A DNA stretch of 64,000 nt, from positions 198,002-262,001 of the forward strand of contig CAWGHH010000002.1 in assembly GCA_963822405.1 (NCBI GenBank), in the 5' to 3' direction. A model generated the notes under the pieces. The model was not told the origin of the DNA, searched no databases, and was given only the letters and a program-made list of their open reading frames with translations. The stretch is from Candidatus Uhrbacteria bacterium. Its GTDB lineage: Bacteria > Patescibacteriota > Patescibacteriia > UBA9934. Position 1 is the first letter of the stretch. Every line of letters starts with the position of its first letter. Of the stretch, positions 1-21,763 are shown piece after piece. Both the position numbers and the translations under genes were made by a program.

Positions 1-139
1 ATGTTTTTAGCAGAATGTCAACCGAAAGATCAAATAATTTAATTAAAAAATTAGCTAACACTTGACAAATACTAAAAAATACAAGAAACTTCGCTCGGCT
101 CGACAAAGGCTCGTATCTATCCCACAAATGGAGGGCCAG

Positions 140-928
140 ATGAAAACCGCGATCGTTACCATCTGTAACCAACAGTATGCGGCTCTGCTGAGCCACTGGC
201 TGTCTGCGATTCGCAGCCTGACGGACATGCCAGTAGCTATACTGTGTCTCAATGGCTTCATCCCGGAGGTGAATCACCCCTGCCTAATCATTGAAGTCTC
301 GAGTGAAGGAAATCCTTTTACGCCAGATCTGCCGGATTACGCATGTGCGGAAAAGCTGAGAATCTTCAAGCATCTTCCGGACATCGATCGTATCCTGTTC
401 ATTGATCTCGACGCGTGGGTCATTCGTGCTTTCTGGAAAGATCAGCCGTATTTTGAACTGTGCGCCGAAAGGTTCATCGCCGCTCAAGATTTTTTCGTGG
501 GTTACAAGGAAAAAATGGTAATGGAGTTTCGTCCCTACGACCCAACGTTCCAGATGCGCTATCTACCTGACGGCTCCTTCTACTACATAAATACGGGCGT
601 TTTTTTCGCCTCGCGTGACAAGCACGCCGTATGGTTTTCCAAATTCATGGAAATTTGGAAGGAATACCTGGACACAGTTGGCCAGCGTCCGTCGATCTTT
701 GATCAAAATCTGATCAACTACTGCCTGATTCGTTTCCGTGAACAGATCCCCACGATACACATGCCTATCACAAACAACTGTATTCGTCAGTACGAGAAGC
801 AAACTATCGATGAAGGGATCCTACGACTGAACGGTGAGCCGATAAGCGTATACCATTTTAATGGCGGAGATGCCGAGAAAAAGGTGGAGCGCTGGGTGAA
901 GCTAAAAGAAGTACTGAAGAAGGCATGA
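140..928 (+). CDS. Putative nucleotide-diphospho-sugar glycosyltransferase (GT-A fold, DxD motif)
   Basis: The ORF 62..928 has a GGAGGG Shine-Dalgarno-like motif at 131-136, 3-4 nt upstream of the ATG at 140 (MKTAIVTICNQQYAALL...). The motif ILFIDLDAWV is a typical DxD of GT-A glycosyltransferases (GT8/GT32-like). The family assignment is inference. Confidence 0.5.
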   Translation: MKTAIVTICNQQYAALLSHWLSAIRSLTDMPVAILCLNGFIPEVNHPCLIIEVSSEGNPFTPDLPDYACAEKLRIFKHLPDIDRILFIDLDAWVIRAFWKDQPYFELCAERFIAAQDFFVGYKEKMVMEFRPYDPTFQMRYLPDGSFYYINTGVFFASRDKHAVWFSKFMEIWKEYLDTVGQRPSIFDQNLINYCLIRFREQIPTIHMPITNNCIRQYEKQTIDEGILRLNGEPISVYHFNGGDAEKKVERWVKLKEVLKKA

Positions 929-950
929 TAGATCACCGTTAAGGATTGAG

Positions 951-979
951 CCGGCGGACGCGTATCCGTCGGTTTTTTT
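951..979 (+). terminator. Rho-independent terminator (GC hairpin plus T7 run)
   Basis: The sequence ccggcggacgcgtatccgtcgg is followed by ttttttt directly after the stop at 928. Confidence 0.55.
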
Positions 980-1048
980 GTTCAGAGTTTTCATTGTTTT
1001 CAGCCTTAGATATTCGGTTGTATTATCAGTAGAGTAAGTGATTATTTA

Positions 1049-1363
1049 ATGGGATGTTATTGGTATCAGCTGGTGCATGGAAGCTGCGCAGATAGATGGA
1101 TCATTTCCAGAGAAATAATCGATGAAAATTGGATCCGTTACCCCCTGGCAACGTCTGCAAAGATGGCTGATCGGGTGATATCGATTGAGATACTATTTTT
1201 CCATTGTGAAACTTGGGATGATTATACGGCTTCCACATTTTTGTATCGCAGTTCTAACATCCTCCACGACGTGGAGTCAATAAATGCTTCAGCAGAAATG
1301 TTGGGGTTTTGTTATAGTTTTTGCGCTACCCAATGTGAGGTCGAGCTGATAGAATGGCATTAA
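1049..1363 (+). CDS. Hypothetical protein (104 aa)
   Basis: ORF track only; no recognisable motif. It starts just after the terminator and ends 4 nt before the next gene. Confidence 0.3.
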   Translation: MGCYWYQLVHGSCADRWIISREIIDENWIRYPLATSAKMADRVISIEILFFHCETWDDYTASTFLYRSSNILHDVESINASAEMLGFCYSFCATQCEVELIEWH

Positions 1364-1367
1364 TACT

Positions 1368-2177
1368 ATGAGTTATTCTTTTTCTTTCACCCAATTCCCC
1401 ACAAAAGAGTTTAACGAACTTTGGGATGATTTTGTTCGTGGCAAGATGTCTGAAAAAATTGGAGAGAAGATTTTGGAACTTCAAAATAAACAGGAGGAAC
1501 TTTTGAAACTTCCCAGATTTTCGCAAAAGACCTTTTATGAGGATCGTGAAGAATGGGTGCGATGCCAGAAGAATTTTGAGGCAGCGAAGTTAAACGAAGA
1601 GCAGGTAGGTTCTTGGCAGTCGCTCAAGATAACGATCGCTGAACAAGAGAGCTACTTGCAACAGGCAACGAGCGAAAAAGAAATTCGGAAGATTGTAAGA
1701 GACGCTCTCGAAATATTCATGGGATTATTTGGTAAGGATAATGCCTATGCCCCAAGAATTCTTTTTGTGGCTGATTGCGACACGTATTCCGATTCCGCAA
1801 AAGGAAACGGATATGCGTTCTTGCAACAGCTATATCGTCGGGTGCACGGCGTCAATCTCGAAGATATAAAAGAGATGCCAACAAATGAACAGTGGTACAC
1901 ATTGTTTCAAGCGTTAAAACCCGAATTCGTAGAAGCAGAACTCAGCACGCTTTTTGCCGAGATTCACGTTTCGAAAGCAGAATACGAAGACACACGAACG
2001 GAATGTCTTCAGTTTTTGCATATTCTGAAAGGTTTACTGAAAGGCTGCTTGGATCGAAAATGGGACTTATGGTTTAGTAGTGAATTTCAAGCGATTGACC
2101 TTGAAGAAAAACAGAAAAAGATTCTAGAAAATTCCTGCACCAAAGCAACCCTCGCCAGTAAAAGGTTGTCTAAATGA
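1368..2177 (+). CDS. Hypothetical protein (269 aa)
   Basis: Long ORF with a non-repetitive protein-like composition and no recognisable family. It is tightly linked to its neighbours in the same orientation. Confidence 0.5.
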   Translation: MSYSFSFTQFPTKEFNELWDDFVRGKMSEKIGEKILELQNKQEELLKLPRFSQKTFYEDREEWVRCQKNFEAAKLNEEQVGSWQSLKITIAEQESYLQQATSEKEIRKIVRDALEIFMGLFGKDNAYAPRILFVADCDTYSDSAKGNGYAFLQQLYRRVHGVNLEDIKEMPTNEQWYTLFQALKPEFVEAELSTLFAEIHVSKAEYEDTRTECLQFLHILKGLLKGCLDRKWDLWFSSEFQAIDLEEKQKKILENSCTKATLASKRLSK

Positions 2178-2196
2178 ATAGCTTAGCGCACATCCT

Positions 2197-3333
2197 GTGC
2201 CCTCGGTGCATAAGGTGATTCGTGAGTTCAAAGATGTATTAAAACAATTCAAGCACACTATGACCATGAAATCCATCATTATCCGAGGTCCACTCGGCGT
2301 TGGAAAAAGCACAGTCGCGAAAGCGGTAGCTGAGAAAATCGGAGGTATTTATATTTCGGTTGATGAAGTCATCGACCAAAACGGTTTAGACAAAACTGTT
2401 GAGGGCGAGGGTATTCCACTCGGCAATTTTCTTAAGGCGAACGAGATTATCGCTCTTGAAGCCAAGCAAGCGAATGACAAAGGGAAGCTGGTCGTTGTCG
2501 ACGGTAATTTTTATCACAAGGAGCAGATCGATCAGCTCGTTGATCTACTTGGAAAGGATGTAACCGTGTTTACACTCAAAGCCTCGGTTGAAACATGCGT
2601 CGCCCGTGATGCCGCAAGAGCGAAGCCTTACGGCGAAGATGCTACACGAGCCGTGCATCGGTTCGTTACCGCATTCGATTACGGAACGATTATCGATACA
2701 GAGCAACTGACCGCAGAAGAGACCATCAAATCAGTAATGGAAATGCTGGATTCTCGACTTGCCAGTTTCTTCAATCGATTTCCACTTTTAGAAAAAACTC
2801 TTGCCATCCTGAACCAGGCAAAGATTCCTTTCGCTGTCGGTGGTAGTGGCTGTTTGTTTCTTCTTGGCAACGAGCGTTTGCCTGACGATGTTGATATCTA
2901 TCTACCAAATGATAAACACGACGAGGTAGACCGACTATTTGGCATTACCCCCTTTCTATATCGTTCAGAACAGGAAGAAGTTCGAAATTCTAACGTTGAC
3001 GGAGATCATACGATTCAGCTCACGAGCAATCTCATCCTAAAGATTGGCGGAAGGAATTACGATCTTGCGTTGATTCAGGATACGCTATCAATGCGTCTTG
3101 AGATGGAATACGCTGGGCAGAAAGTATTTCTGTATCCTCCGGAAGATGTTTTGCTTATTAAGGCTCTGCTTCAACGCGGACAAGATGTCGGTAAACATGA
3201 TATTGAGGATATTCAGAATTTCATAAAAATTTATCCAAATCTTCGGATGGATTATCTTGAAAAACGTATTTCCGAACTTGGGGCAGAAGAGCGCGTTGGC
3301 AATATCTTGTGTACGCGGATTCAAAAAAAGTAG
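2197..3333 (+). CDS. Fusion protein: N-terminal P-loop NTP kinase (AAA_33/zeta-toxin/CPT-like) plus C-terminal Pol-beta-superfamily nucleotidyltransferase
   Basis: A Walker A motif GPLGVGKST and a hhhhD Walker-B-like motif VVVDGNF place the N-terminus among small-molecule P-loop kinases. The C-terminal half carries VGGSGCLFLLGNERLPDDVDIYL, a GS...DxD pattern typical of minimal nucleotidyltransferases. The track start is a GTG at 2197; in-frame ATGs at 2260 and 2266 are alternative starts. Confidence 0.6.
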   Translation: MPSVHKVIREFKDVLKQFKHTMTMKSIIIRGPLGVGKSTVAKAVAEKIGGIYISVDEVIDQNGLDKTVEGEGIPLGNFLKANEIIALEAKQANDKGKLVVVDGNFYHKEQIDQLVDLLGKDVTVFTLKASVETCVARDAARAKPYGEDATRAVHRFVTAFDYGTIIDTEQLTAEETIKSVMEMLDSRLASFFNRFPLLEKTLAILNQAKIPFAVGGSGCLFLLGNERLPDDVDIYLPNDKHDEVDRLFGITPFLYRSEQEEVRNSNVDGDHTIQLTSNLILKIGGRNYDLALIQDTLSMRLEMEYAGQKVFLYPPEDVLLIKALLQRGQDVGKHDIEDIQNFIKIYPNLRMDYLEKRISELGAEERVGNILCTRIQKK

Positions 3334-3343
3334 ACTAAAGCAT

Positions 3344-3865
3344 ATGAAATCAGAATTTGGAGAACCGGTAGACGAGCAGATCCAATTAGAGCGAGAACTG
3401 GATGATGTGCGATTGAGTGACGGATCAACTCTGAAGGAGGAATTTCAAATTTTGAAAGAACGTATTTCCCTGGAGCTTCCGCCAAAGATTACGATTGTTG
3501 ATGTGGTTGTTTCTGAAACGGCTGATTTTCAGAAGATTTTGTTACAACTTAAAGCCTATTTAAAGATTCCCGACATTCAGGTGGTAGATTCCAGCTCGTA
3601 CGCCAGCTTTGAGCAGGCGGTTCTAGCTTCTAAAGATTTGGCAGTTATTTTGAAAGATGAAGCGACGAGCAAAGAGGCTAACCACCCGGGGTGGATTCAT
3701 TCCCAGGATCAGGGATTCAAGCAGGGTAGGGAGCTGAAGGACTTTATGGCTTCGACAAATAAAGTAGTAGTCCTGGTTCGCTATTGGGACGCTAAGGATG
3801 ACATGAAGCGCAAGAATATCCTCACGCTCAATGATTTTAACGACTCCACGATTCGTCCAGTTTGA
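3344..3865 (+). CDS. Hypothetical protein (173 aa)
   Basis: Track ORF 3257..3865 overlaps the upstream gene. The first ATG after the upstream stop is at 3344 (MKSEFGEPVDEQ...). No recognisable family. Confidence 0.45.
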   Translation: MKSEFGEPVDEQIQLERELDDVRLSDGSTLKEEFQILKERISLELPPKITIVDVVVSETADFQKILLQLKAYLKIPDIQVVDSSSYASFEQAVLASKDLAVILKDEATSKEANHPGWIHSQDQGFKQGRELKDFMASTNKVVVLVRYWDAKDDMKRKNILTLNDFNDSTIRPV

Positions 3866-3885
3866 GATAAGTCAGAATATCAAAT

Positions 3886-5010
3886 ATGAAAAAAGTAGCT
3901 TGTGGAATAATCTCGAGAATTAGGGAAGGCGGCAATAAAGAATATTTGCTTGTGAGTTCGACGAAGAACTTTGGGGAATATACTGGTTTCTATTATCCTC
4001 CGGGCGGTCATATTGAAGATGGCGAGAGTGTTCAGGAGGCGCTTATTAGAGAAGTACAGGAAGAGCTTAGTTTGCAAATTAAACCAAATGTAGAGATCAC
4101 GGTGACACCTGGAGACGTTCCAGATCAAGAGACGCATTGGTGGAGTTGTGAATTGATTGGCGGAAACCTAAAGCTTCAACAAGACGAAATCGCTGATGCA
4201 GGATTTTTTACGCGTGAAGAAATGGCTAAGATGAAGATCTGGCCGCAACAAAAAATTTATTTGCGAAGTATATTTCGAAGGTTTAATACAGGCCGTTTAG
4301 ATGGTAGAACATCGCTAATTTTAGATACTTTTCGTTTGACAATTCGACAGAGAATTGTTAGTCTTTTGCGACCGCTGACGACAACCAAAGATTCCAAACT
4401 TTTGTCGGTGGTCCTTCTTTCTAAAAAAGATCGAAGGGGGAATCAATTGAGCAAGAGGTCATTGATCATGACAACGGATAGGACGTTTACTTTTCCTGTG
4501 GCGGTCGCCGCTCTCCTGGAGTGCGGTGCCAAGATTCGTCGTCTTGGCTGGCGAACCAAATTCCACTTGGAGCTGGAGGATTACTCGATATACAGCTCCG
4601 CCGTCATCGTGCGTGTCGCGGACGATGGGAGCAATTCCCGCAATCCGTGGGGAGTTGTCACTGAAGATGATTCCACTGCTGATGATTGGGAGATCATTGA
4701 GGGAGGCGCGAACAGCGAGATCTCGGACGACTTTCGTCCCTCCGTGGGCACCTACGCCCATGCCCTACAATGTCTTCTTGCAGGTTCTCCGGCTATCCGC
4801 ATGTCGGCCGGCTGGCACCCCGCGATGAAGATCTTGCTGGTCGACGGTCAGATCAAGATCGAAGATCGGATAGTCAGTATGGGCAAAGTCATGGTGCTCA
4901 CCCTGCCGAACGGTTCGTACAAGTACTACCGTCCGGCGCCCCAGGACCTGGCCTCGGCCTGGACCGTGATCGAGGAGGTCCGACCTGAACGTAAATCAGC
5001 TGAACCGTAA
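3886..5010 (+). CDS. Nudix hydrolase (N-terminus) continuing in-frame into a GC-rich tandem DUF2829-like (phage-type) domain
   Basis: A Nudix box GGHIEDGESVQEALIREVQEELSL lies in residues 40-63. Residues about 130-194 are a low-complexity R/L/T-rich linker. From the internal ATG at 4468 (MTTDRTFTFPVAVAALLECGAKIRRLGWR...) a second unit (TYAHALQCLLAGSPAIRMSAGWH) repeats the A..ALL.G..IRR.GW signature of the phage DUF2829 family. The DNA from about 4440 to 5010 is visibly much more GC-rich than the flanks. Confidence 0.55.
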   Translation: MKKVACGIISRIREGGNKEYLLVSSTKNFGEYTGFYYPPGGHIEDGESVQEALIREVQEELSLQIKPNVEITVTPGDVPDQETHWWSCELIGGNLKLQQDEIADAGFFTREEMAKMKIWPQQKIYLRSIFRRFNTGRLDGRTSLILDTFRLTIRQRIVSLLRPLTTTKDSKLLSVVLLSKKDRRGNQLSKRSLIMTTDRTFTFPVAVAALLECGAKIRRLGWRTKFHLELEDYSIYSSAVIVRVADDGSNSRNPWGVVTEDDSTADDWEIIEGGANSEISDDFRPSVGTYAHALQCLLAGSPAIRMSAGWHPAMKILLVDGQIKIEDRIVSMGKVMVLTLPNGSYKYYRPAPQDLASAWTVIEEVRPERKSAEP

Positions 5011-5057
5011 TCAGGAGGTTCGGCTCGAAGGTTACTTTCCGCTTAGCGATTACTACG

Positions 5058-5092
5058 GCCGCCCACGAGTCAAACTCTTGGGCGGCATTTGT
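5058..5092 (+). terminator. Rho-independent terminator
   Basis: The stem gccgcccacgagtcaaactcttgggcggc is followed by atttgtt. Confidence 0.5.
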
Positions 5093-5226
5093 TAAAATAG
5101 AATATTTATATACTGTCGGTGAGGGTGCGAATTCACGGGCTATTTTAGGAGGTGGTGTAATAAAACACGAAGTACATCGTTTAATGATAGACTAGGTGTA
5201 ATTTATCGTCGTTTTTTGCGTTATGT

Positions 5227-5796
5227 ATGAATGAGGAGGAGCACAAAAATTCCGAACTACAGGGAGCCGAGCTGATTCAGCGAGCAAAAGTTGACCAGCG
5301 TGCTTTCGAAGAACTTTATAACAAGTATTTTTCGGAATTGTATAGATATGTATTTAGGCGTGTCGGACATCGGGAAACTGCTGAAGACATCCTTTCAATC
5401 GCCTTTACAAAAGTATTCATAAGCCTTGATTCGTATACCGGTGACGAAAGGGGATTTAAATCGTGGTTGTACAAAATATCTACCAATTGCCTCATTGATC
5501 ATTATCGGAAACAGGGCGGGAGGAAAGAGACGCAAATTGAGACAGTCGAACATCTCTTAGAAAGTCAGAACACCGCAGACCAGGAAGTAAAAAGACAATT
5601 CACCAGGGCGGGTATTGACCACGCGCTCCGCAGGCTTTCAAAAGGGGATCAAGAAATAATTCATTTGAAATATTTTGCCGAGTATTCAAATCAAGAAATC
5701 GCCGAGCATCTCCGTATATCCGCGAACAGCTGCGGAGTAAAGATTTACCGAGCCCTGGCCAGGTTCAAGTCACTGTATACCTCTTATGATGAATAA
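5227..5796 (+). CDS. RNA polymerase ECF-type sigma-70 family factor
   Basis: Region 2 reads FEELYNKYFSELYRYVFRRVGHRETAEDILSIAFTKVF. The region 4 helix-turn-helix reads EIIHLKYFAEYSNQEIAEHLRISANSCGVKIYRALARFK. The stop TAA at 5794-5796 overlaps the ATGATG start of the next gene. Confidence 0.85.
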   Translation: MNEEEHKNSELQGAELIQRAKVDQRAFEELYNKYFSELYRYVFRRVGHRETAEDILSIAFTKVFISLDSYTGDERGFKSWLYKISTNCLIDHYRKQGGRKETQIETVEHLLESQNTADQEVKRQFTRAGIDHALRRLSKGDQEIIHLKYFAEYSNQEIAEHLRISANSCGVKIYRALARFKSLYTSYDE

Positions 5797-8700
5797 AAAA
5801 CGTGCTGAAGAATTAGAAAATGCCCTGAATTCAGGGGAAAATGCCGTTGAGCGTAATAATTCCAAATTACAGCCGTTATTAGAGGTAGACGAACTATTAA
5901 CAAAACACGTTTATCCTGATGAGGAGCCACGTTCCGACTTTAAAGAGCGGTTGTTGGCGTCTATAGCATCAGAACGAACTGCTCGCTCAAATCGTATGAA
6001 GCTCCCAAAGTTTTCCCTGCCACATGTCAGGTTTGCCGTGCCATTGCGTTGGTCTGCGGCTGTGGCGTTCGTTGTGCTGGTCTCGGTTGTTGTTGGATCA
6101 ACAGGCCTATTTCCGTTTGGCGGATCGCGTTTGGGGGACTTCAGCCGCCTGATTATTGATGAGGCCTATGCTCAAGATAACTTTGCCATTACCCCAACTG
6201 ACGGTGACACAACTGGTGTAAACGGCGCGTCAGGTTTTACTATTACGAGTCACGTTGATATCTCTCTTGAGGATCTTCGGAACAACATTCGTATTTCCCC
6301 TGAAACAGCCTTTAATCTCACCGCGGTAGACGCGAATACATTTTTTCTTGAGCCACTGACGGATCTCCAGGGTGGCCGGGTCTATACCGTGACTGTTGAC
6401 GCTTCTTACCAGAATTCTTCCGGGCAGTTATCTGAGCGTAATTATTCTTGGGCTTTCCAGGTAAAAGACTTATTTAAGGTTTTACATACCGTGCCAAGAG
6501 ATCTCTCTTCTGGCGTACCGACGGATACCGGAATTGAATTCACCTTTAGCTATCAAAATGTAGAGGGACTGAAGGACGCTTTTTCTATCACGCCCCAGGT
6601 TGATGGCCGGTTTGAAACTCATGGAAAAACTGTCGTTTTTGTTCCTAGCACCAGACTTTCCCCGGCGACTATTTACCACGTGTCTTTAGCTGATTCTGTC
6701 CGGGTGACTGGATCTGTGGAGAAATTACTTGAACCCGTTTCATTCCAATTTGAAACGAGTAGCGGGTCTTCGCAGTCTCACTTCAGCATTCAGGAGCCTA
6801 TGCTTGAATTTGCAACCAGCGATCAAGTAGTGATCCCGGTGTATAGCAGTGAAAAAGCAAAAAGCACCATCAGCACTAAAGTTTATGCGTTTAAGAGTGC
6901 AGATCAGTTTACTGACGCGCTTCGCGAACGAACGGAAATTCCTGTTTGGGCCCGAGCTTCGCGTGGAGCGCATACCGTAAAGACAACCAATCTCTCAGAA
7001 GTTTCTACTTCAGAGGCAAGCATCCAAACTGTTGGATATCAGAACTTTGTACCGCTGCCCGATGAATTAGGAGCGGGACTGTACCTGGTTGAGCTCCGAG
7101 AAGGCGCATACGCCTCACAAGTGCTTATTCAGATTACGGATCTGGCGGTGTATTCAGCTGTTACCTCTACAGATACGATTGTTTGGGTGAATGACACCTC
7201 TACTCGTGGCGCCGTGCAAAATGCCAAAATAGCCTCTCTTGATGGACGCTTGAACGCTTCAACGAACGTTGAAGGAGTTGCCGTCCTTAACGGCGCGGCC
7301 ATGCTTGAGGGCGTCCAGCATCCTTGGAATGTGAATGAATATATTACGGTAACCGCGGGTAATAAGCTGACCGTTGTCCAAATTGGTAAGTCGACAAATT
7401 ATTATTACATCGACACGGAATATACAAAGGATCAGTACTGGGACTATCTCTATACGGACCGGTCAATGTACCAGCCAACGGACACCATTTCTTTCTGGGG
7501 ATTTGTTCAAGGGCGGAATGGATCTACGCCAGGCACAGTGCGCGTCACGCTGGCAACTCAGTCTTACTATGATGATGCCGGTGAAACGATTCCGCTGTAT
7601 GAGGAGACTCTTCCAGTTGTTGGTGGAGCGTATACAGGCTCAACATCATTCTCTCGGTTGACGTCGGGTTCTTATGTCTTGAACGTGTATCAAAACGAAA
7701 CACAGATTGGCAGTCGGTATATTCGGGTAAATGAGTATGAGAAACCAGCCTACCAATTGAGTATCGAACCAGAGAAAAAGGCGGGCTTTGCTACGGAGTC
7801 TTTTGCCTACACGGTAGATGCATCGTTCTTTGAGGGAACACCTGTATCCAGTCTTCCGCTCAGCGCAAAATCATCAAATCGATCAACCATCTCTCCTCAG
7901 TTGACTACCACTTTGGACCAAGACGGGAAGGGCACCTTGACGTTTAAGACAAAATCACAAACCTGTGCCTTTGATAAGTCTTGCAGTCTTTACACCTACG
8001 GAAGCGTTTCTGTTCAGCCAACACTGGCGGAGGAGGCGGATATTGTGGCCTCAGCTCCGCAGATTGTTTTTAATTCCCGGGTGACGGCGGGTGTTTCTGT
8101 CGAGCGATCCGACAGTCAACTGATAACCACAACGGTGGATGCATTTAATATTGATCTTTTAAAGATTAACAAATCTGGGGGCAGCTATTATAGAGAAGAG
8201 GATTATCGTGGTTCTCTTGCGAGCGGAGTGCTGATTCGTGGTCAGATCACGGAAACATCCTACAGCCGCGTCCAAACGGGAGAGGTTTATGACTTCATAA
8301 ATAAAGTGCACTACCCGAAGTATCGGTATGATAGGCAGGAGAAGATTGTTGATACTTTTAATGGCACCACCGGGGCAGATGGTTCTTTTGCTGTCACATA
8401 CCAAGGCGCTGAGGACAAGAGTTACTCGGTGGAAGTGATTCTTCAAGATAAACAAGGAGGTGAGCATCTTCTCTCTGGGTGGAATTATGCAAATGAACGT
8501 TTCCGAGAATGGCGAGAATACGACTATTACAATATCGCGCGCGTTAAAGAAACAAATGCTTTCCGTTTAGGGGAGACGGCGGAGTTTGCCTTTCAGAAAA
8601 ATGGCGAGCCGGTAGTAGCGGATGCGGATGACTCTTTCCTTTTCTTGAAGCTTAAGGAGGGGCTCATAGATCATGAGGTGTCAAGGGATTCGCTCTACTC

Positions 8701-11359
8701 GTTTGTCTTTAACGAAGATGCCGTTCCGAACGTTTCGGTTGACGGAGTGTATTTTGATGGCCAGTCTTACATTGTGCCTGGATATTCCCTGGGCGGTTCA
8801 AACGCCACTGCAAACCTGGATTTGTCTGAACGAGAACTCCGTGTTGCGGTCAGTACGGATAAGGCTGAATATGAACCGGGGGAGAAAGTTATTCTATCCC
8901 TTCGCGTTACTGATGTGAACGGAAAACCGGCGACGTCTGCTGTAAATGTGAACCTTGTTGATGAAGCTTTCTACGCGTTACAAGAAGAAGCGGTAAATCC
9001 GCTTGGCTCGCTGTACCAAAATCTTGGTAGCGGTTTAGCTTTTGTAGGCGAAACACATAAGTATCGTTCGCTTGCAGGTTTAGATAACGGCGGTGAAGGC
9101 GGAGGTTGTTTCTTGCCGGGCACCAGGATTATGCTTGAAAATGGCAGAGAGAAATCCATTGAGGACATTAAAGTTGGGGACCGCATTCTCACAAAAGCGT
9201 CAGAACGATCAGATAAGCTTGTTGGTGCGACGGTGAAACAGGTGTTTGTTCATGACGTGAATGAATACATGGTCTTGAATGGCAAAATCCGGGTTACTCC
9301 CATCCACCGGATGTTTGTGAATTACGGCTGGCAGCCAATTGGGGAGGCTAAGCTTGGCGATGTGCTACTTGGTGCCAACGGTGAGATGGTGCCAATTGCT
9401 TCCATTGAATGGGTGCGTGAACCGGTGACAGTCTATAACTTTGAGGTTGAAGGGCTGCATACCTATATTGCCGATGGTGTCTACGTTCATAATGACAAGG
9501 GCGGTGTTCGGGAAGATTTTGCGGACACAGCGCTCTTTGAATCCGTGAGGACAGATGCAAATGGCCAGGCTACGCTCACCTTTGAGTTGCCGGACAATAT
9601 TACTTCTTGGCGTGTCACAGCGCAGGCCATTAGCCCTGACCTTTATGCAGGTGCCGGGGTGACTCCGATCCGTTCTACAAAACCGGTGTTTGCTGACGCG
9701 GTCATTGCCTCTGAATATCTGGCTTCAGATAAGCCTGAGATTAAAGTCCGCGCTTACGGCACTGCGCTCACAAATGATAGCCGGGTGAATTTTGAGGTCT
9801 CGTCAGAAAGTCTTAAGATTAATGAGTCATTTACAGAAAAGGCGTACGCTTCAAAGTATGTAAGCCTTGGAGATCTTTCTGGCCGCACTGGATCTCATGA
9901 CGTTCTAGTTTCCGCTAAGTCCGGAGCGTATGCTGACGCCCTTAAGCGGACCACGAGCGTTGTAGAATCCCGCATCATGCAGACGGAAGAATCTGTAGAA
10001 ACGGTTACGGATACCACCTCACTTGCGGACAAGGCAGGAGTTGAACTGATCTTCACTGACGCCTCAAGAGGAAAATATTATCAGAACGTTAGAAGTCTTC
10101 AGTACACAAGCGGCGGCAGGGCAGACCAGCTCTCAGCCAGCATTTTGAGCCAGCAACTTCTTGCTGACTACTTTGGCGGAACTAAGCTGTCAGATGCGGA
10201 TCTGACGGCGTATACGACTACAAATGGCTTGATTGCGCTCTTACCGTATGCTGACGGAGATCTGGCACTTACCGCTAAGATAGTTACGGCTGATCCAGAA
10301 CTGGTGGACGGCTATACACTGTCATCAACGCTCCGCGGAATTCTTGACTCTAAAAAATCAACCAATGAAGAGATTGCTCAGGCGCTGTTGGGACTGGCGG
10401 CTCTTGGCGAACCGATCTTAATTCCAATTCAAAACTTGGCCCGGCTTGAAGACCAGTCAGTAACAACCAGGCTCTACACGGCCATGGCTCTGGCGGAAAT
10501 CGGTGACCGTGAGAATGCGAGAGACATATTCGTTGACCTTCTCCGCGATTATGGTGAGAAGACGGACGCATATACTCGCCTAAAATTTTCATCTGACGCA
10601 GAGACGCTGGAAGTGACGGCGCTAGGAACAGTACTTGCAGCCATGGTTCAGGATCCACACATGGAGAAACTTTGGACATACACAAGTACCGTTTATGTGA
10701 AGAATGTCATTACCCCACTTGAGCGCGCGCTCTATCTGGGTGAGGTAATACCAGCGCTTCCGGTGTCGGACACCTCATTTGAACTTGCTGTAAAGGGAAA
10801 GTCTGTCACTATCGATCTCTCAAATGGCAAAACCTATAGCCTACGACTAACGGAAGACCAGGCTACAAGCGCGAACATTCGTTCCGTGAAGGGATCTGCT
10901 GTCCTAACAACGTCACGGCGGGTGGAGAGTAATGGAACCGAAAGGGATGAACTGGTGTCACTCACGCGTGAGTACCGTAATCTCCAGGGACAGGCGGTTA
11001 CTGAGTTTAAAGAAGGGGACGTGATAGAAGTACGCATCGCCACCTCCTTTAGTGGTTCAGCTCCTGACGGGGCGTATCAGATTACAGACCTTGTTCCAAG
11101 CGGACTGACGCCTGTCACTCAGCCGCGCCGTTACAGTAGCCCAAATAAGAACTCAACAGTTTTGCGGCCGTATTCGCTTCAGGGGCAGACGGCAAAGTTC
11201 ATGTATTACAAAGGACAGTACAACAATCGCACATTCAGTTATTACTTGCGCGTGACCTCAATTGGTGAATATACCGCCGAGCCTGCACTGATTGAATATG
11301 CGAACGCGCCGACTATCCGTAGCTTCTCGGAAAACGGGGCCTTAAAGATCACCAGATAG
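5786..11359 (+). CDS. Giant membrane-anchored protein (1857 aa) with an anti-sigma-factor-like N-terminus, an alpha-2-macroglobulin-like MG-domain body without thioester, and an inserted Hint/BIL domain
   Basis: The gene is translationally coupled to the ECF sigma gene by an 11-nt overlap. About 90 cytoplasmic residues are followed by a single transmembrane segment (AAVAFVVLVSVVVGS) and a large extracytoplasmic part. A2M-family hallmarks include YTDRSMYQPTDTISFWGFVQGRNG (MG2-like, nt about 7451-7520). They also include DKAEYEPGEKVILSLRVTDVNGKPATSAVNVNLVDEAF (nt about 8858-8960) and REDFADTALFESVRTDANGQATLTFELPDNITSWRVTAQAIS (MG6 motif, nt about 9500-9630). The C-terminus has an A2M-receptor-like TDLVPSGLTP. 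No CxEQ thioester motif is present. Confidence 0.75.
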   Translation: MMNKKRAEELENALNSGENAVERNNSKLQPLLEVDELLTKHVYPDEEPRSDFKERLLASIASERTARSNRMKLPKFSLPHVRFAVPLRWSAAVAFVVLVSVVVGSTGLFPFGGSRLGDFSRLIIDEAYAQDNFAITPTDGDTTGVNGASGFTITSHVDISLEDLRNNIRISPETAFNLTAVDANTFFLEPLTDLQGGRVYTVTVDASYQNSSGQLSERNYSWAFQVKDLFKVLHTVPRDLSSGVPTDTGIEFTFSYQNVEGLKDAFSITPQVDGRFETHGKTVVFVPSTRLSPATIYHVSLADSVRVTGSVEKLLEPVSFQFETSSGSSQSHFSIQEPMLEFATSDQVVIPVYSSEKAKSTISTKVYAFKSADQFTDALRERTEIPVWARASRGAHTVKTTNLSEVSTSEASIQTVGYQNFVPLPDELGAGLYLVELREGAYASQVLIQITDLAVYSAVTSTDTIVWVNDTSTRGAVQNAKIASLDGRLNASTNVEGVAVLNGAAMLEGVQHPWNVNEYITVTAGNKLTVVQIGKSTNYYYIDTEYTKDQYWDYLYTDRSMYQPTDTISFWGFVQGRNGSTPGTVRVTLATQSYYDDAGETIPLYEETLPVVGGAYTGSTSFSRLTSGSYVLNVYQNETQIGSRYIRVNEYEKPAYQLSIEPEKKAGFATESFAYTVDASFFEGTPVSSLPLSAKSSNRSTISPQLTTTLDQDGKGTLTFKTKSQTCAFDKSCSLYTYGSVSVQPTLAEEADIVASAPQIVFNSRVTAGVSVERSDSQLITTTVDAFNIDLLKINKSGGSYYREEDYRGSLASGVLIRGQITETSYSRVQTGEVYDFINKVHYPKYRYDRQEKIVDTFNGTTGADGSFAVTYQGAEDKSYSVEVILQDKQGGEHLLSGWNYANERFREWREYDYYNIARVKETNAFRLGETAEFAFQKNGEPVVADADDSFLFLKLKEGLIDHEVSRDSLYSFVFNEDAVPNVSVDGVYFDGQSYIVPGYSLGGSNATANLDLSERELRVAVSTDKAEYEPGEKVILSLRVTDVNGKPATSAVNVNLVDEAFYALQEEAVNPLGSLYQNLGSGLAFVGETHKYRSLAGLDNGGEGGGCFLPGTRIMLENGREKSIEDIKVGDRILTKASERSDKLVGATVKQVFVHDVNEYMVLNGKIRVTPIHRMFVNYGWQPIGEAKLGDVLLGANGEMVPIASIEWVREPVTVYNFEVEGLHTYIADGVYVHNDKGGVREDFADTALFESVRTDANGQATLTFELPDNITSWRVTAQAISPDLYAGAGVTPIRSTKPVFADAVIASEYLASDKPEIKVRAYGTALTNDSRVNFEVSSESLKINESFTEKAYASKYVSLGDLSGRTGSHDVLVSAKSGAYADALKRTTSVVESRIMQTEESVETVTDTTSLADKAGVELIFTDASRGKYYQNVRSLQYTSGGRADQLSASILSQQLLADYFGGTKLSDADLTAYTTTNGLIALLPYADGDLALTAKIVTADPELVDGYTLSSTLRGILDSKKSTNEEIAQALLGLAALGEPILIPIQNLARLEDQSVTTRLYTAMALAEIGDRENARDIFVDLLRDYGEKTDAYTRLKFSSDAETLEVTALGTVLAAMVQDPHMEKLWTYTSTVYVKNVITPLERALYLGEVIPALPVSDTSFELAVKGKSVTIDLSNGKTYSLRLTEDQATSANIRSVKGSAVLTTSRRVESNGTERDELVSLTREYRNLQGQAVTEFKEGDVIEVRIATSFSGSAPDGAYQITDLVPSGLTPVTQPRRYSSPNKNSTVLRPYSLQGQTAKFMYYKGQYNNRTFSYYLRVTSIGEYTAEPALIEYANAPTIRSFSENGALKITR
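9107..9493 (+). other. Hint (Hedgehog/intein) domain of bacterial-intein-like (BIL) type embedded in the giant protein
   Basis: Residues 1108-1236 begin GGEGGG-CFLPGTRIML and include ...TVYNFEVEGLHTYIADGVYVHN. Cys1, an intein block-F-like VYNFEVEG.HTY and a terminal His-Asn are all present. The +1 residue is Asp, so canonical protein splicing is not expected. This matches the description of A-type BIL domains. Confidence 0.7.
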
Positions 11360-12402: not shown

Positions 12403-12825
12403 ATGCAGGTAAATTACTTAGCGATTCTGGTTGCATCATTACTTCAGTTTATGTTTGGCGCGGTATGGTATACGCCGGTGTTTGGAAAAGTGTGGGGCAA
12501 GATTCATGGTTTTGATAAGGTTCCAAAAGAGAAACAACTAGAGATGATGAAGAAGATGCCACCGCTACTTGGTATGCAGTTTGTAGTCACTATTATCACT
12601 ACCGTTGTGTTAGCTGTATTGCTGGCGGGAACTGAGAGAACTTGGAATGCTTATGCTCTTGCTGGTCTTTGTTGGCTGGGCTTTATTCTCCCTACGCAGG
12701 TCAGCGCTGTACTTTTTGGTGGCACTGAACCAAAGTGGATTGTGACGAAAATTTTAATCATGGCTGGTGGTGCACTTGGTTGCCTGATGATTGCCACGGC
12801 CGTGTTGAGCGCAATGCCAGCGTAA
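12403..12825 (+). CDS. DUF1761 family membrane protein
   Basis: MQVNYLAILVASLLQFMFGAVWYTPVFGKVW... matches the DUF1761 N-terminal signature, with 3-4 predicted transmembrane segments. Confidence 0.6.
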   Translation: MQVNYLAILVASLLQFMFGAVWYTPVFGKVWGKIHGFDKVPKEKQLEMMKKMPPLLGMQFVVTIITTVVLAVLLAGTERTWNAYALAGLCWLGFILPTQVSAVLFGGTEPKWIVTKILIMAGGALGCLMIATAVLSAMPA

Positions 12826-20752: not shown

Positions 20753-21763
20753 ATGGAAAATGTTCCAGGTCAATCTTCGAGTTTCATTTTGTACACCACG
20801 CCGAATGGTGGGGTGAAACTTGATGTATTTATTCGGGATGAAACATTGTGGCTGACGCAAAAGATGATGGCTGAGCTATTCGAGACCACACCACAAAACA
20901 TCACCATTCATTTAAAAAATTTGTATTCTGAGGCGGAGATTAGCGAAGTTTCAACTTGTAAGGAATTTTTACAGGTTCGAAAAGAGGGTGATCGGGAAGT
21001 CAGGAGAGAAACCATGTTTTACAATCTTGATGCGATTATCTCGGTTGGTTACCGAGTAAATTCAAGTCAAGCAACGCAGTTTCGTATTTGGGCTACGCAG
21101 GTTTTGCGCGAATATATTGTGAAGGGATTCGCGATGAATGATGAACGCCTTAAGAATCCAAACAATGTATTTGGGAAGGATTATTTTGAGGAACAGTTGG
21201 CGCGTGTCCGAGATATTAGAGCCAGCGAGAGAAGGATGTATCAGAAGATTACGGATATATATTCGCAGTGTAGCGTCGACTATTCGCCGGACACGGATAT
21301 CACTAAACAGTTTTACGCTGTGGTTCAGAATAAATTGCACTTTGCTATCACTGGGCAGACGGCAGCGGAAATTATTCATGGTCGAGCTGACAGCGCGAAG
21401 CCAAATATGGGTTTGACGACCTGGAAAAATGCGCCGCAGGGAAAGATTCGTGAAACTGATGTAGTCGTTGCAAAGAATTATCTCAACGTCACGGAAATGG
21501 ATCATCTTAATCGAATCGTCACTATGTACCTTGACTACGCCGAGCTTCAGGCGCGACGAGGTATGGTGATCCGAATGAATGATTGGATTGAAAAACTAAA
21601 TGCGTTTCTTGAGTTTAACGAACGCGAGATTCTGGCCAATGCTGGAAATATCAGTCATGATGTGGCTGAGGCTTTGGCTTTGGGGGAGTTCGAAAAATAT
21701 CGCGTTCAGCAAGACAGAGATTACATTTCAGATTTCGACGAAGAAATAAAGAAAATATTATGA
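20753..21763 (+). CDS. RhuM family protein
   Basis: YNLDAIISVGYRVNSSQATQFRIWATQVLREYIVKGFAMNDERLKN is the RhuM family signature. The gene overlaps engB by ATGA. Confidence 0.7.
   Translation: MENVPGQSSSFILYTTPNGGVKLDVFIRDETLWLTQKMMAELFETTPQNITIHLKNLYSEAEISEVSTCKEFLQVRKEGDREVRRETMFYNLDAIISVGYRVNSSQATQFRIWATQVLREYIVKGFAMNDERLKNPNNVFGKDYFEEQLARVRDIRASERRMYQKITDIYSQCSVDYSPDTDITKQFYAVVQNKLHFAITGQTAAEIIHGRADSAKPNMGLTTWKNAPQGKIRETDVVVAKNYLNVTEMDHLNRIVTMYLDYAELQARRGMVIRMNDWIEKLNAFLEFNEREILANAGNISHDVAEALALGEFEKYRVQQDRDYISDFDEEIKKIL

Follow-up and report, generated by a model that had tools for sequence, protein, structure and literature searches.

A rare, lineage-specific kinase-nucleotidyltransferase fusion in a non-conserved gene row of an Uhrbacteria genome

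Introduction

Two group-transfer domains are carried on one chain by HldE/RfaE, by the fucokinase/GDP-fucose pyrophosphorylase (FKP), by AAC(6')-APH(2'') and by CoaE-GrpB. A further protein with two such domains, a P-loop kinase joined to a nucleotidyltransferase (NTase) of the DNA polymerase beta (Pol-beta) fold, is encoded in the genome of a Candidatus Uhrbacteria bacterium (GenBank assembly GCA_963822405.1, contig CAWGHH010000002.1). The stretch of 64,000 nt analysed here, positions 198,002 to 262,001 of the contig, is called the window, and coordinates refer to it unless another locus is named. The fusion gene is the third of five genes lying close together on the + strand at 1049-5010, and it represents a rare, lineage-specific domain combination in a gene row that is not conserved. 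In HldE and FKP the fold of each half differs from that in the window fusion, and the parallel is a conceptual one. The host belongs to the Candidate Phyla Radiation (CPR). CPR bacteria and DPANN archaea rely on partner organisms for their nucleotides, and much of their gene content has yet to be characterised.

Described relatives of the kinase half include the kinase domain of O-phosphoseryl-tRNA(Sec) kinase (PSTK; PDB 3adb/3a4l), KTI12 and the T4 polynucleotide kinase (PNK) type, with the same ordered catalytic set, and chloramphenicol phosphotransferase (CPT; 1qhs), TmrD, which confers tunicamycin resistance (2vli), and the gluconate and shikimate kinases, with the same fold. On the NTase side the comparison is with TM1012 of Thermotoga maritima (2ewr/2fcl/4hx0) and DUF2204, with the antibiotic NTases ANT(2'')-Ia (aminoglycosides; 4wqk/5cfs) and LnuA (lincosamides; 4fo1), and with the MenT1 (Rv0078A)/AbiEii toxins. 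The MenT1 residues T39 and D41xD43 have been described, and MenT toxins are inactivated by phosphorylation (PMC11375011). The last gene of the row includes sequence related to Tad2, which consists of 89 aa, belongs to DUF2829 and sequesters 1''-3' gcADPR (bioRxiv 10.1101/2023.05.01.538930).

Results

The fusion protein and its start

A preliminary description of this DNA, made from the sequence alone, proposed that the third gene of the row encodes a P-loop small-substrate kinase fused to a Pol-beta NTase and considered such a fusion unusual. The fusion is genuine and very unusual, the motifs on which the proposal was based are present (GPLGVGKST at residues 31-39, VVVDGNF at 99-105 and GGSG...DDVDI at 215-234), and both halves keep their catalytic residues; the rarity of the combination, the identity of its domains and the origin of the fusion are likewise documented below. 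Its features are as follows.

2197..3333, + strand: kinase-NTase fusion gene, 378 aa from GTG 2197
2266..2766, + strand: P-loop hydroxyl-kinase domain (AAA_33, 44.7 bits; Walker A G31-T39 at nt 2287-2313)
2767..3333, + strand: Pol-beta-fold NTase domain with a C-terminal helical subdomain (GGSG at residues 215-218; motifs spanning nt 2839-2895)

Four distinct kinase-NTase fusion sequences were found, namely that of the window and three orthologues 86% (P0002), 82% (P0003) and 82% (L011) identical to it; here P numbers denote homologous proteins and L numbers the fetched loci. The closest relatives of the protein carry Uhrbacteria or Patescibacteria labels. As the orthologues begin with MK[AS]II and residues 1-23 of the 378-aa form are disordered in the structural model (predicted local distance difference test, pLDDT, below 50), translation probably begins at ATG 2260 or 2266, giving 357 or 355 aa, and not at GTG 2197. 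The AlphaFold model of the whole fusion, built with 11 sequences, reached a pLDDT of 84.6 and a predicted template modelling score (pTM) of 0.55, compared with 89.2 and 0.86 for the NTase half modelled alone; therefore the protein appears to consist of two confident domains that are flexibly linked, with their mutual orientation undefined.

The kinase half belongs to a small family of CPR bacteria and DPANN archaea

Residues 27-154 matched the Pfam family AAA_33 at 44.7 bits (cutoff 27). Weaker matches in the same region were to AAA_18 (33.6 bits), Cytidylate_kin (28.7), CPT (PF07931; 24.0 against a cutoff of 22) and shikimate kinase, so that CPT is fourth among the P-loop models matching there. 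Foldseek comparison with the PDB gave template modelling (TM) scores of 0.74-0.77 for gluconate and sugar kinases (gluconate kinase 0.77), 0.71 for CPT, 0.66 for TmrD, 0.61 for the kinase of Clostridium thermocellum Pnkp and 0.57 for Fap7. Sequence identity to CPT, TmrD and the gluconate and shikimate kinases, which share the fold at TM 0.66-0.77, is 17-22%.

When 1.84 billion representatives were searched exhaustively with HMMER, only 362 relatives of the kinase were recovered at E<=1e-3, most of them standalone proteins of 160-170 aa. In a taxon scan using one genome per GTDB species, archaeal carriers of the module (40-52% identity) belonged to the Woese-, Pace-, Micr- and Nanoarchaeota, and bacterial ones to the Uhrbacteria. 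The family is small and uncharacterised, and its occurrences in this analysis were confined to CPR bacteria and DPANN archaea. Among 40 members the Gly and Lys of Walker A, an Asp after strand 2, the motif R-D-x-x-R and the Tyr of DGNFY are invariant, while the D and G of DGNFY, which resembles a Walker B motif, are more than 90% conserved. The corresponding residues of the window protein, in the 378-aa numbering, are G31, G36, K37, D56, D102-G103 and the lid R137-D138-x2-R141. The ordered set is that of the PSTK kinase domain, KTI12 and T4 PNK, and we take the Walker A Lys, the Asp after strand 2, the Walker B-like Asp and RxxxR to be equivalent to the PNK and PSTK residues. The Pfam score, Walker A, the catalytic Asp, the Walker B-like Asp and the RxxxR lid all agree with an AAA_33/PNK/PSTK-type enzyme.

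When the family profile was compared with the PDB, the best full-domain match was the archaeal PSTK kinase domain (50 bits, E 2e-12, profile positions 3-136), followed at lower ranks by Fap7 (36 bits), shikimate kinase (30) and TmrD (25.9); CPT was absent among the best 60 matches. Members of the family also match Pfam KTI12. Orthology with Fap7 was considered and rejected, as its profile score of 36 bits lies below that of PSTK. The family differs from PSTK in its low identity and in lacking the C-terminal tRNA-binding domain of PSTK and KTI12, its standalone members being of about 165 aa and the C-terminus of the window protein being the NTase; moreover, the CPR and DPANN lineages that carry it are not known to decode selenocysteine. 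The model for Gar/GrdA gentamicin resistance (NF038208) scored 27.1 bits against an NCBIfam cutoff of 170. The term CPT-like, used in the preliminary description, is apt for the fold (CPT 0.71, TmrD 0.66) and does not clearly hold for the family, the profile of which is closest to PSTK. We conclude that the kinase half is a predicted active hydroxyl kinase of the PNK/PSTK/AAA_33 type and probably not a specific relative of CPT. The N-terminal extension of two DPANN kinase fusions (P0021 and P0040) resembles HEPN in its motifs, without Pfam support, and a HEPN identity is not claimed.

The NTase half is a small Pol-beta-fold domain near DUF2204

In the NTase half a GGSG loop is followed by D231-V-D233, and the structural model matches NTase folds only, both as expected for the Pol-beta superfamily. 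Seven homologues share the invariant elements GG..G, R-x-P-x-D-x-D, VRNSN and PEDVLL-K-..LQRG....K-DI-DI, which place the key residues of the 378-aa form at GGSG 215-218, R227-L-P229-D-D231-V-D233, K322, D335 and D338. The window domain alone scored 17.4 bits with DUF2204 (PF09970, cutoff 20.3), and two standalone NTases that are 48-54% identical to it scored 35.1 (P0016) and 33.3 bits (P0018). With the ANT(2'') model (PF10706) the score was 16.2 bits against a cutoff of 21 and covered only the N-terminal 67 residues. No PDB sequence matched the NTase half, and the DUF1814 (AbiEii) Pfam model gave no match to it.

The best fold match was TM1012, with a TM score of 0.70 and a root-mean-square deviation of 3.6 A over 157 columns, at 17-18% identity; none of the TM1012/DUF2204 proteins is reported fused to a kinase. 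Next came ANT(2'')-Ia (0.58-0.60), MenT1 (0.57-0.58) and LnuA (0.57), and identity to the four structures ranged over 15-18%. ANT(2'')-Ia and LnuA have, like the window domain, a small core and a helical C-terminal subdomain, but the C-terminal LLIKALLQRG...GKHDIEDI of the window protein resembles the K137/D152 pattern of MenT1. The order of the G-rich loop, R-x-x-x-D-x-D, catalytic Lys and late Asp is also comparable to that of MenT1/AbiEii. The window protein differs from MenT1 in having Pro in place of the regulatory/catalytic Ser/Thr, in the absence of a cognate antitoxin gene and in contexts made up of ordinary enzyme genes; the position of the phospho-acceptor in MenT toxins (R-x-[ST]-x-D-x-D) is occupied throughout the family by an invariant Pro (RLPDDVD). 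An earlier comparison of this half with the Lnu and ANT enzymes is borne out as far as the fold class of small NTases goes (TM 0.57-0.60), whereas at the family level it fails (PF10706, 16.2 against 21). A tRNA-directed NTase activity would be as compatible with these data as an antibiotic NTase activity.

Origin of the fusion and variety of partners

A standalone NTase of Uhrbacteria UBA11707 (L012) is 81% identical to the C-terminal half of the fusion and begins with MKTLDSRL, which aligns exactly with the fusion junction ...VMEMLDSRL. The fusion therefore links the 3' end of a kinase gene to the opening codons of an NTase gene that was once independent, and it would have arisen by loss of the kinase stop codon and the spacer. 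Genes that combine the kinase with different partners share about 80% DNA identity, which ends abruptly at the junction. Nowhere were separate kinase and NTase genes seen side by side: no P-loop gene adjoins the standalone NTases in L005, L008, L012 and L015, and no NTase motif was detected beside DPANN kinases in the fetched loci.

The same kinase module, at 63-80% identity within Uhrbacteria, is fused to Peptidase_S51 (six sequences), to a class I methyltransferase and to an APH-type kinase, and also to a kinase of the PRK/uridine-kinase type, a Zeta-like kinase, HAD and GNAT. More distant members are fused to GrpB (P0049), HAD, GNAT or a second P-loop domain. These fusions come from Uhrbacteria and relatives (P0004-P0015, P0017, P0020, P0023; P0049, P0056, P0077, P0096, P0110; L013, L014, L016), and in all the kinase is joined to at least 10 unrelated domains. 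GrpB is classified as an NTase fold as well, and the kinase-GrpB protein parallels, within this very kinase family, the CoaE-GrpB fusions. In the PRK-type fusion the codons for 'TLDSRL' from the beginning of the NTase gene are still present, and this points to serial replacement of cassettes at one junction.

The neighbourhood is not conserved

The proposal of a functional cluster implied that the fusion gene should remain linked to its neighbours in other genomes. This was not observed: when seven proteins of the window were searched by tblastn against the orthologue loci, the fusion gene alone was recovered, so that a conserved operon was rejected, and this gene is all that L001, L002, L003 and L011 have in common. 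All-vs-all clustering of 396 open reading frames (ORFs) from 34 loci detected as shared neighbours only loose groups of Nudix, HIT and alpha/beta-hydrolase proteins. The row is made up of strain-specific accessory genes and is not a conserved system.

The surroundings of the relatives are diverse. In L001 the fusion orthologue is accompanied by small unknowns, DUF1761, hemerythrin and S51, while L002 (3202-4521) and L011 (2952-3959) each encode a large serine recombinase (Resolvase/Recombinase/Zn_ribbon_recom) on the other strand, shortly 3' of the fusion gene, a hint of a mobile or variable context. Standalone NTases adjoin a UbiE-like methyltransferase (L005-7) or sit between an unknown gene and an HD hydrolase (L008), and no conserved neighbour of DPANN kinases was found in the fetched loci. 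In UBA11707 (L012 6004-8451) a cupin gene and the standalone NTase gene are followed directly by two Nudix genes and then by a 3-dehydroquinate-synthase-like gene; the first Nudix protein can be aligned with the window Nudix along the entire domain (31% identity), the second at the Nudix box alone. HIT genes directly adjoin the kinase or kinase fusion in L011 (1876-2962, in the order fusion-HAD-HIT), L014 (7087-7566) and L019 (5354-5773), which are two contigs of bacterial metagenome-assembled genomes, one labelled Bacteroidetes, and one Woesearchaeota genome, otherwise unrelated. The contig labelled Bacteroidetes is that of L011 and is probably mis-binned. As a separate observation, the DUF1761 gene of L001 lies two genes 3' of the fusion orthologue (4415-4831) and has a homologue in the window about 9 kb downstream of the row (12403-12825), this being the only other family common to the two loci.

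A census within three genes on either side of the kinase or NTase families (114 genes in 23 loci) counted six NUDIX, three HIT and three HAD genes and two each of CYTH, GNAT and APH. With motif-based detection, and with the other ORFs in these loci and in the remainder of the window as background, Nudix genes numbered 6 of 114 near these families and 1 of 214 far from them (Fisher p=0.008; Nudix and HIT together, p=0.005). As the Nudix genes come from three loci only (L012, L020 and L021) and are partly tandem, this modest enrichment is a hint of nucleotide-conjugate chemistry rather than linkage.

A defence role, also raised in the preliminary description, found no echo in the genes around the row. 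PADLOC returned only generic matches, VakA for the P-loop domain (23.9 bits) and PDC-S07 for the Nudix domain (47.7 bits), and nothing for the other genes. The notion of a defence island was rejected, as the surroundings are housekeeping or miscellaneous genes; downstream of the row they encode an extracytoplasmic function (ECF) sigma factor, a giant alpha-2-macroglobulin-like protein, Memo, DUF1761, RibD_C, a U32 peptidase, RhuM and a PAS protein. No viral relatives of the fusion or of the last ORF of the row were found in IMG/VR. The preliminary description had set against its own proposal a picture of two halves from unrelated housekeeping families with no conserved tie to the neighbours. 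About half of that picture is what emerged.

The gene row and its transcription signals

The five + strand ORFs described at 1049-5010 are all present, with gaps of 4, 19, 10 and 20 nt, and an independent assembly of the same organism (L004) gave identical gene calls. Besides the fusion gene, the row and its flanks comprise the following.

948..975, + strand: terminator-like hairpin followed by a T-run, after the ORF at 62-928 (consensus scan; 11-pair stem with 6 GC pairs, TTTTTGTT tail)
997..1026, + strand: sigma-70-like promoter match TTTTCA-18-TATTAT, 23 nt 5' of the first gene (consensus match only)
1049..1363, + strand: hypothetical protein, 104 aa, Cys/Trp-rich, without family match
1368..2177, + strand: hypothetical protein, 269 aa, without family or PDB match
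3344..3865, + strand: hypothetical protein, 173 aa when started at ATG and 202 aa when started at a TTG further 5', without family match
3886..5010, + strand: Nudix/Tad2-like ORF, 374 aa
5057..5088 (about), + strand: GC-rich hairpin GCCGCCCA...TGGGCGGC, then ATTTGTT (read from the sequence)

Since nearly every long ORF of the window is on the + strand, the shared direction of the row is uninformative. The tight spacing, the hairpin at 948-975, the promoter-like site and the hairpin at about 5057-5088 nevertheless suggest one transcription unit, of which the first hairpin would be the probable upstream boundary and the last a possible end. These signals are consensus matches only, and sigma-70-like sites were fewer in the real sequence than in shuffled sequence. 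The terminator scan did not call the hairpin at 5057-5088 because its loop exceeds 8 nt. No Rfam or riboswitch element was found in 1-6000 at E<=1.

Library and homologue searches matched nothing to the 104-, 269- and 173-aa proteins, each of which is a singleton at 90% clustering. Relatives of the 269-aa protein are absent from all fetched loci except L004, and the 173-aa protein is absent beside every fusion orthologue examined. The 288-aa ORF upstream of the row (62-928) had been labelled a DxD glycosyltransferase; this label is unverified, as the ORF matched nothing in Pfam, NCBIfam, PHROGs, PADLOC or PDB sequences, and its exact translation from TTG was absent from the protein collection.

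The Nudix/Tad2-like ORF

The last ORF had been described as a Nudix hydrolase. A Nudix domain is indeed present, but the 374-aa product is not a plain Nudix protein and continues through a linker into two Tad2-like (DUF2829) repeats.

3886..4290, + strand: Nudix domain, residues 2-124 (PF00293, 54.4 bits), near-canonical box GHIEDGESVQEALIREVQEELSL from nt 4006
4291..4467, + strand: in-frame linker of 59 codons, no stop codon, composition unlike coding sequence
4468..5010, + strand: tandem Tad2-like (DUF2829) cassette, 180 aa, with its own ATG and AGGGGGAAT ribosome-binding site

Nudix enzymes cleave ADP-ribose (ADPR)-type pyrophosphates. The box departs from GX5EX7REUXEEXGU in a single position, the penultimate G being S, and the PDB relatives of the domain are 1sjy and 3gwy. 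The linker has GC fractions of 0.41/0.44/0.37 at the three codon positions; by shuffling, it would be free of stops by chance with p=0.016, and its other frames hold 6 and 4 stops. Of the two repeats, the first (residues 202-271) matched PF11195 at 33 bits (cutoff 25), and the second was recognised by weak internal similarity only (E 0.029).

The only close relative of the cassette is a standalone protein of 172 aa (P0028; 70% identity), the first Met of which corresponds to M195 of the window ORF, encoded by ATG 4468. Its gene (L009 8001-8519) follows priA and def, has no Nudix gene nearby and shares the AGGGGGAAT ribosome-binding site with the window copy. In the window the cassette has 57% GC between flanks of about 40%, the flanks being 33% in L009, and GC at third codon positions is 0.66 and 0.71 in the two copies against 0.28-0.48 in neighbours. 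As it forms a sharp GC island in both AT-rich hosts, the cassette is compositionally foreign and was acquired horizontally in both. The ORF may give rise to the predicted fusion protein, to a Tad2-like protein initiated internally, or to both.

The repeat units of about 85-90 aa match Tad2 in size. The window cassette differs from Tad2, a phage sponge, in its two divergent tandem repeats, its location in a CPR chromosome and its in-frame junction with Nudix. No other genome was found with a Nudix-Tad2 fusion, in a whole-protein search that was weak since the cluster representative is a 39-aa fragment; a metagenome scan returned one weak relative of the Tad2-like part only, no sequence match to solved Tad2 structures was obtained, and a literature search gave no DUF2829-Nudix link in this sense. 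The window Nudix gene is not an orthologous partner of the fusion but a gene joined in frame to an acquired cassette. Were both parts of the ORF translated as a single polypeptide, a signal-sponge domain would here be linked to a hydrolase for the first time.

Discussion

Proposed function of the fusion

The reading that we favour, with confidence somewhat short of even, is that the row consists of probably co-transcribed, lineage-specific accessory genes and that the fusion is a two-step group-transfer enzyme acting on substrates of the nucleoside, nucleotide or RNA-end type. The kinase half would use ATP to phosphorylate a hydroxyl of a nucleoside-, nucleotide- or RNA-end-like substrate, and the NTase half would move a nucleoside monophosphate (NMP) from a nucleoside triphosphate to the same or a related substrate through its DxD metal site, Lys322 and Asp335/338. 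With the halves on a flexible linker, the protein could serve as a two-step modifying enzyme of nucleotide-conjugate metabolism, whether in salvage, house-cleaning or end-healing, with neighbouring hydrolases of the Nudix and HIT types acting on such conjugates. A nucleotide-type substrate is favoured by the PSTK/PNK type of the kinase, by the likeness of the NTase to MenT1 and TM1012, by the fusion partners PRK, HAD and GrpB and by the Nudix, HIT, HAD and CYTH neighbours. We infer from these comparisons the substrate class and the coupling of the halves to each other or to the Nudix enzyme, and both halves may act on the same molecule.

Several points weigh against this proposal. The comparisons single out no individual substrate. 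By fold, the kinase lies as close to enzymes that phosphorylate sugars and antibiotics as to the polynucleotide kinases, and the NTase is equidistant from the antibiotic NTases and the tRNA-modifying toxin. Nudix and HIT genes each occur in only 3 of 23 loci, as found by motif against a small background, and the tandem Nudix genes inflate the gene-level p-value. The S51 peptidase, GNAT, APH and methyltransferase partners are off the nucleotide theme, and they may mean only that the kinase gene borders a variable region.

In a bolder version, the kinase would be the hub of a hitherto undescribed nucleotide-conjugate or RNA-end toolkit of ultra-small symbionts, in which phosphorylation is followed by NMP addition through a fused or neighbouring DUF2204/GrpB-type NTase and by reversal or editing through Nudix or HIT enzymes; in this genome a tandem Tad2-like cassette, captured horizontally, would have turned the Nudix protein into an enzyme that both binds and cleaves signals of the ADPR type or cyclic nucleotides. 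We consider this version quite improbable. Whatever its substrate, a compact kinase family of about 360 among 1.8 billion proteins, repeatedly fused to nucleotide-handling and group-transfer domains, offers a tractable entry to the accessory metabolism of CPR bacteria and DPANN archaea, with the kinase-NTase fusion as a ready assay construct.

Alternative explanations

The preliminary description leaned towards a bifunctional enzyme that modifies antibiotics or other xenobiotics, one half by O-phosphorylation and the other by O-nucleotidylylation, with the halves joined in the manner of bifunctional aminoglycoside-modifying enzymes. The fold matches to CPT, TmrD, ANT(2'')-Ia and LnuA agree with such an enzyme, as do a CPT score just over the Pfam cutoff, the weak Gar/GrdA match at 27 bits and the resistance-enzyme folds (APH, GNAT, methyltransferase) among the other partners of the same kinase. 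We nonetheless consider it unlikely, as no resistance family is convincingly matched (Gar 27 against 170, ANT(2'') 16.2 against 21, CPT fourth), the family profile prefers PSTK, with TmrD at 25.9 bits and CPT outside the best 60, and identity to ANT and Lnu enzymes is only 15-17%. Most of the family, furthermore, are standalone kinases in DPANN archaea, on which typical antibacterial drugs are unlikely selective agents, and no efflux or other resistance genes lie nearby in the neighbourhoods examined.

A second possibility is that genome compaction at a variable locus has produced both the fusion and the array as by-products. The kinase gene would border a hotspot at which cassettes 3' of it are swapped and often end up translationally fused, the halves would be independent, and the neighbours (hypotheticals, Nudix, Tad2-like cassette) would have no pathway in common. 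One kinase of 63-80% identity joined to at least 10 unrelated domains, the sharp break of DNA homology at the junction, the wholly different neighbours of close orthologues, the large serine recombinase beside the fusion in L002 and L011, and the foreign composition of the inserted Tad2-like cassette are all what compaction would leave behind. Yet the NTase fusion is intact in four diverged lineages (82-86%) and the S51 fusion recurs in six sequences; NTase-fold partners were gained twice independently, as DUF2204 and as GrpB; Nudix and HIT genes are over-represented around members of the family; and the linker before the cassette has stayed stop-free at p of about 0.016. On balance this possibility also seems to us improbable, about as much so as the modification of antibiotics.

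Far less probable is that the NTase half is a toxin acting on tRNA 3' ends in the manner of MenT/AbiEii, held in check by the kinase or by a small downstream ORF as in a single-chain, type VII-like module. MenT1 (8an4, TMq 0.57) matches the NTase half as well as any characterised NTase does, the window R-x-x-x-D-x-D, Lys and Asp parallel MenT1 R37/D41xD43, K137 and D152, MenT toxins are themselves inactivated by phosphorylation, and a small unknown ORF lies 3' of the fusion in every locus. Those downstream ORFs, however, are mutually unrelated and no AbiEi/COG5340-like or MenA-like neighbour accompanies them, the phospho-acceptor position holds the invariant Pro, the DUF1814 model has no match, the standalone NTase homologues lie among ordinary enzymes, and the kinase in most cases stands alone or is joined to domains other than toxins.

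To a nucleotide-signalling defence or counter-defence array, in which the kinase-NTase would make or modify a nucleotide signal and the Nudix-Tad2-like protein would bind and cleave immune signals of the ADPR-derived or cyclic-nucleotide kind, we give the least credence of all, since against the Tad2-like domain above its Pfam threshold (33 against 25 bits), the gcADPR-sequestering activity of Tad2 itself, the horizontally acquired cassette and the weak VakA and PDC-S07 matches stand the generic nature of those matches with no system-level composition, the absence of TIR, cyclase, effector or other defence genes nearby, of viral relatives and of sequence matches to solved Tad2 structures, the failure to find the Nudix-Tad2 fusion in any other genome, with its standalone homologue lying beside priA and def, and a linkage to the kinase-NTase confined to this genome.

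Other features of the window

The gene after that of the ECF sigma factor (5227-5796) starts 11 nt before the latter ends and encodes, at 5786-11359, a bacterial alpha-2-macroglobulin-like protein of 1857 aa (Big_5, MG2, A2M_BRD, A2M, bMG10). Between its bait-region and A2M domains lies a HINT/intein-like module (PT-HINT, 48 bits, residues about 1104-1237). A gene for a RhuM-family 'virulence protein' was found at 20753-21763 (375 bits) amid unannotated ORFs; near the kinase-S51 fusion in L014 there is a 331-aa ORF that may be a homologue (8298-9293). ARAGORN detected no tRNA genes in the 64-kb window, across which the cumulative GC skew shows a near-monotonic rise.

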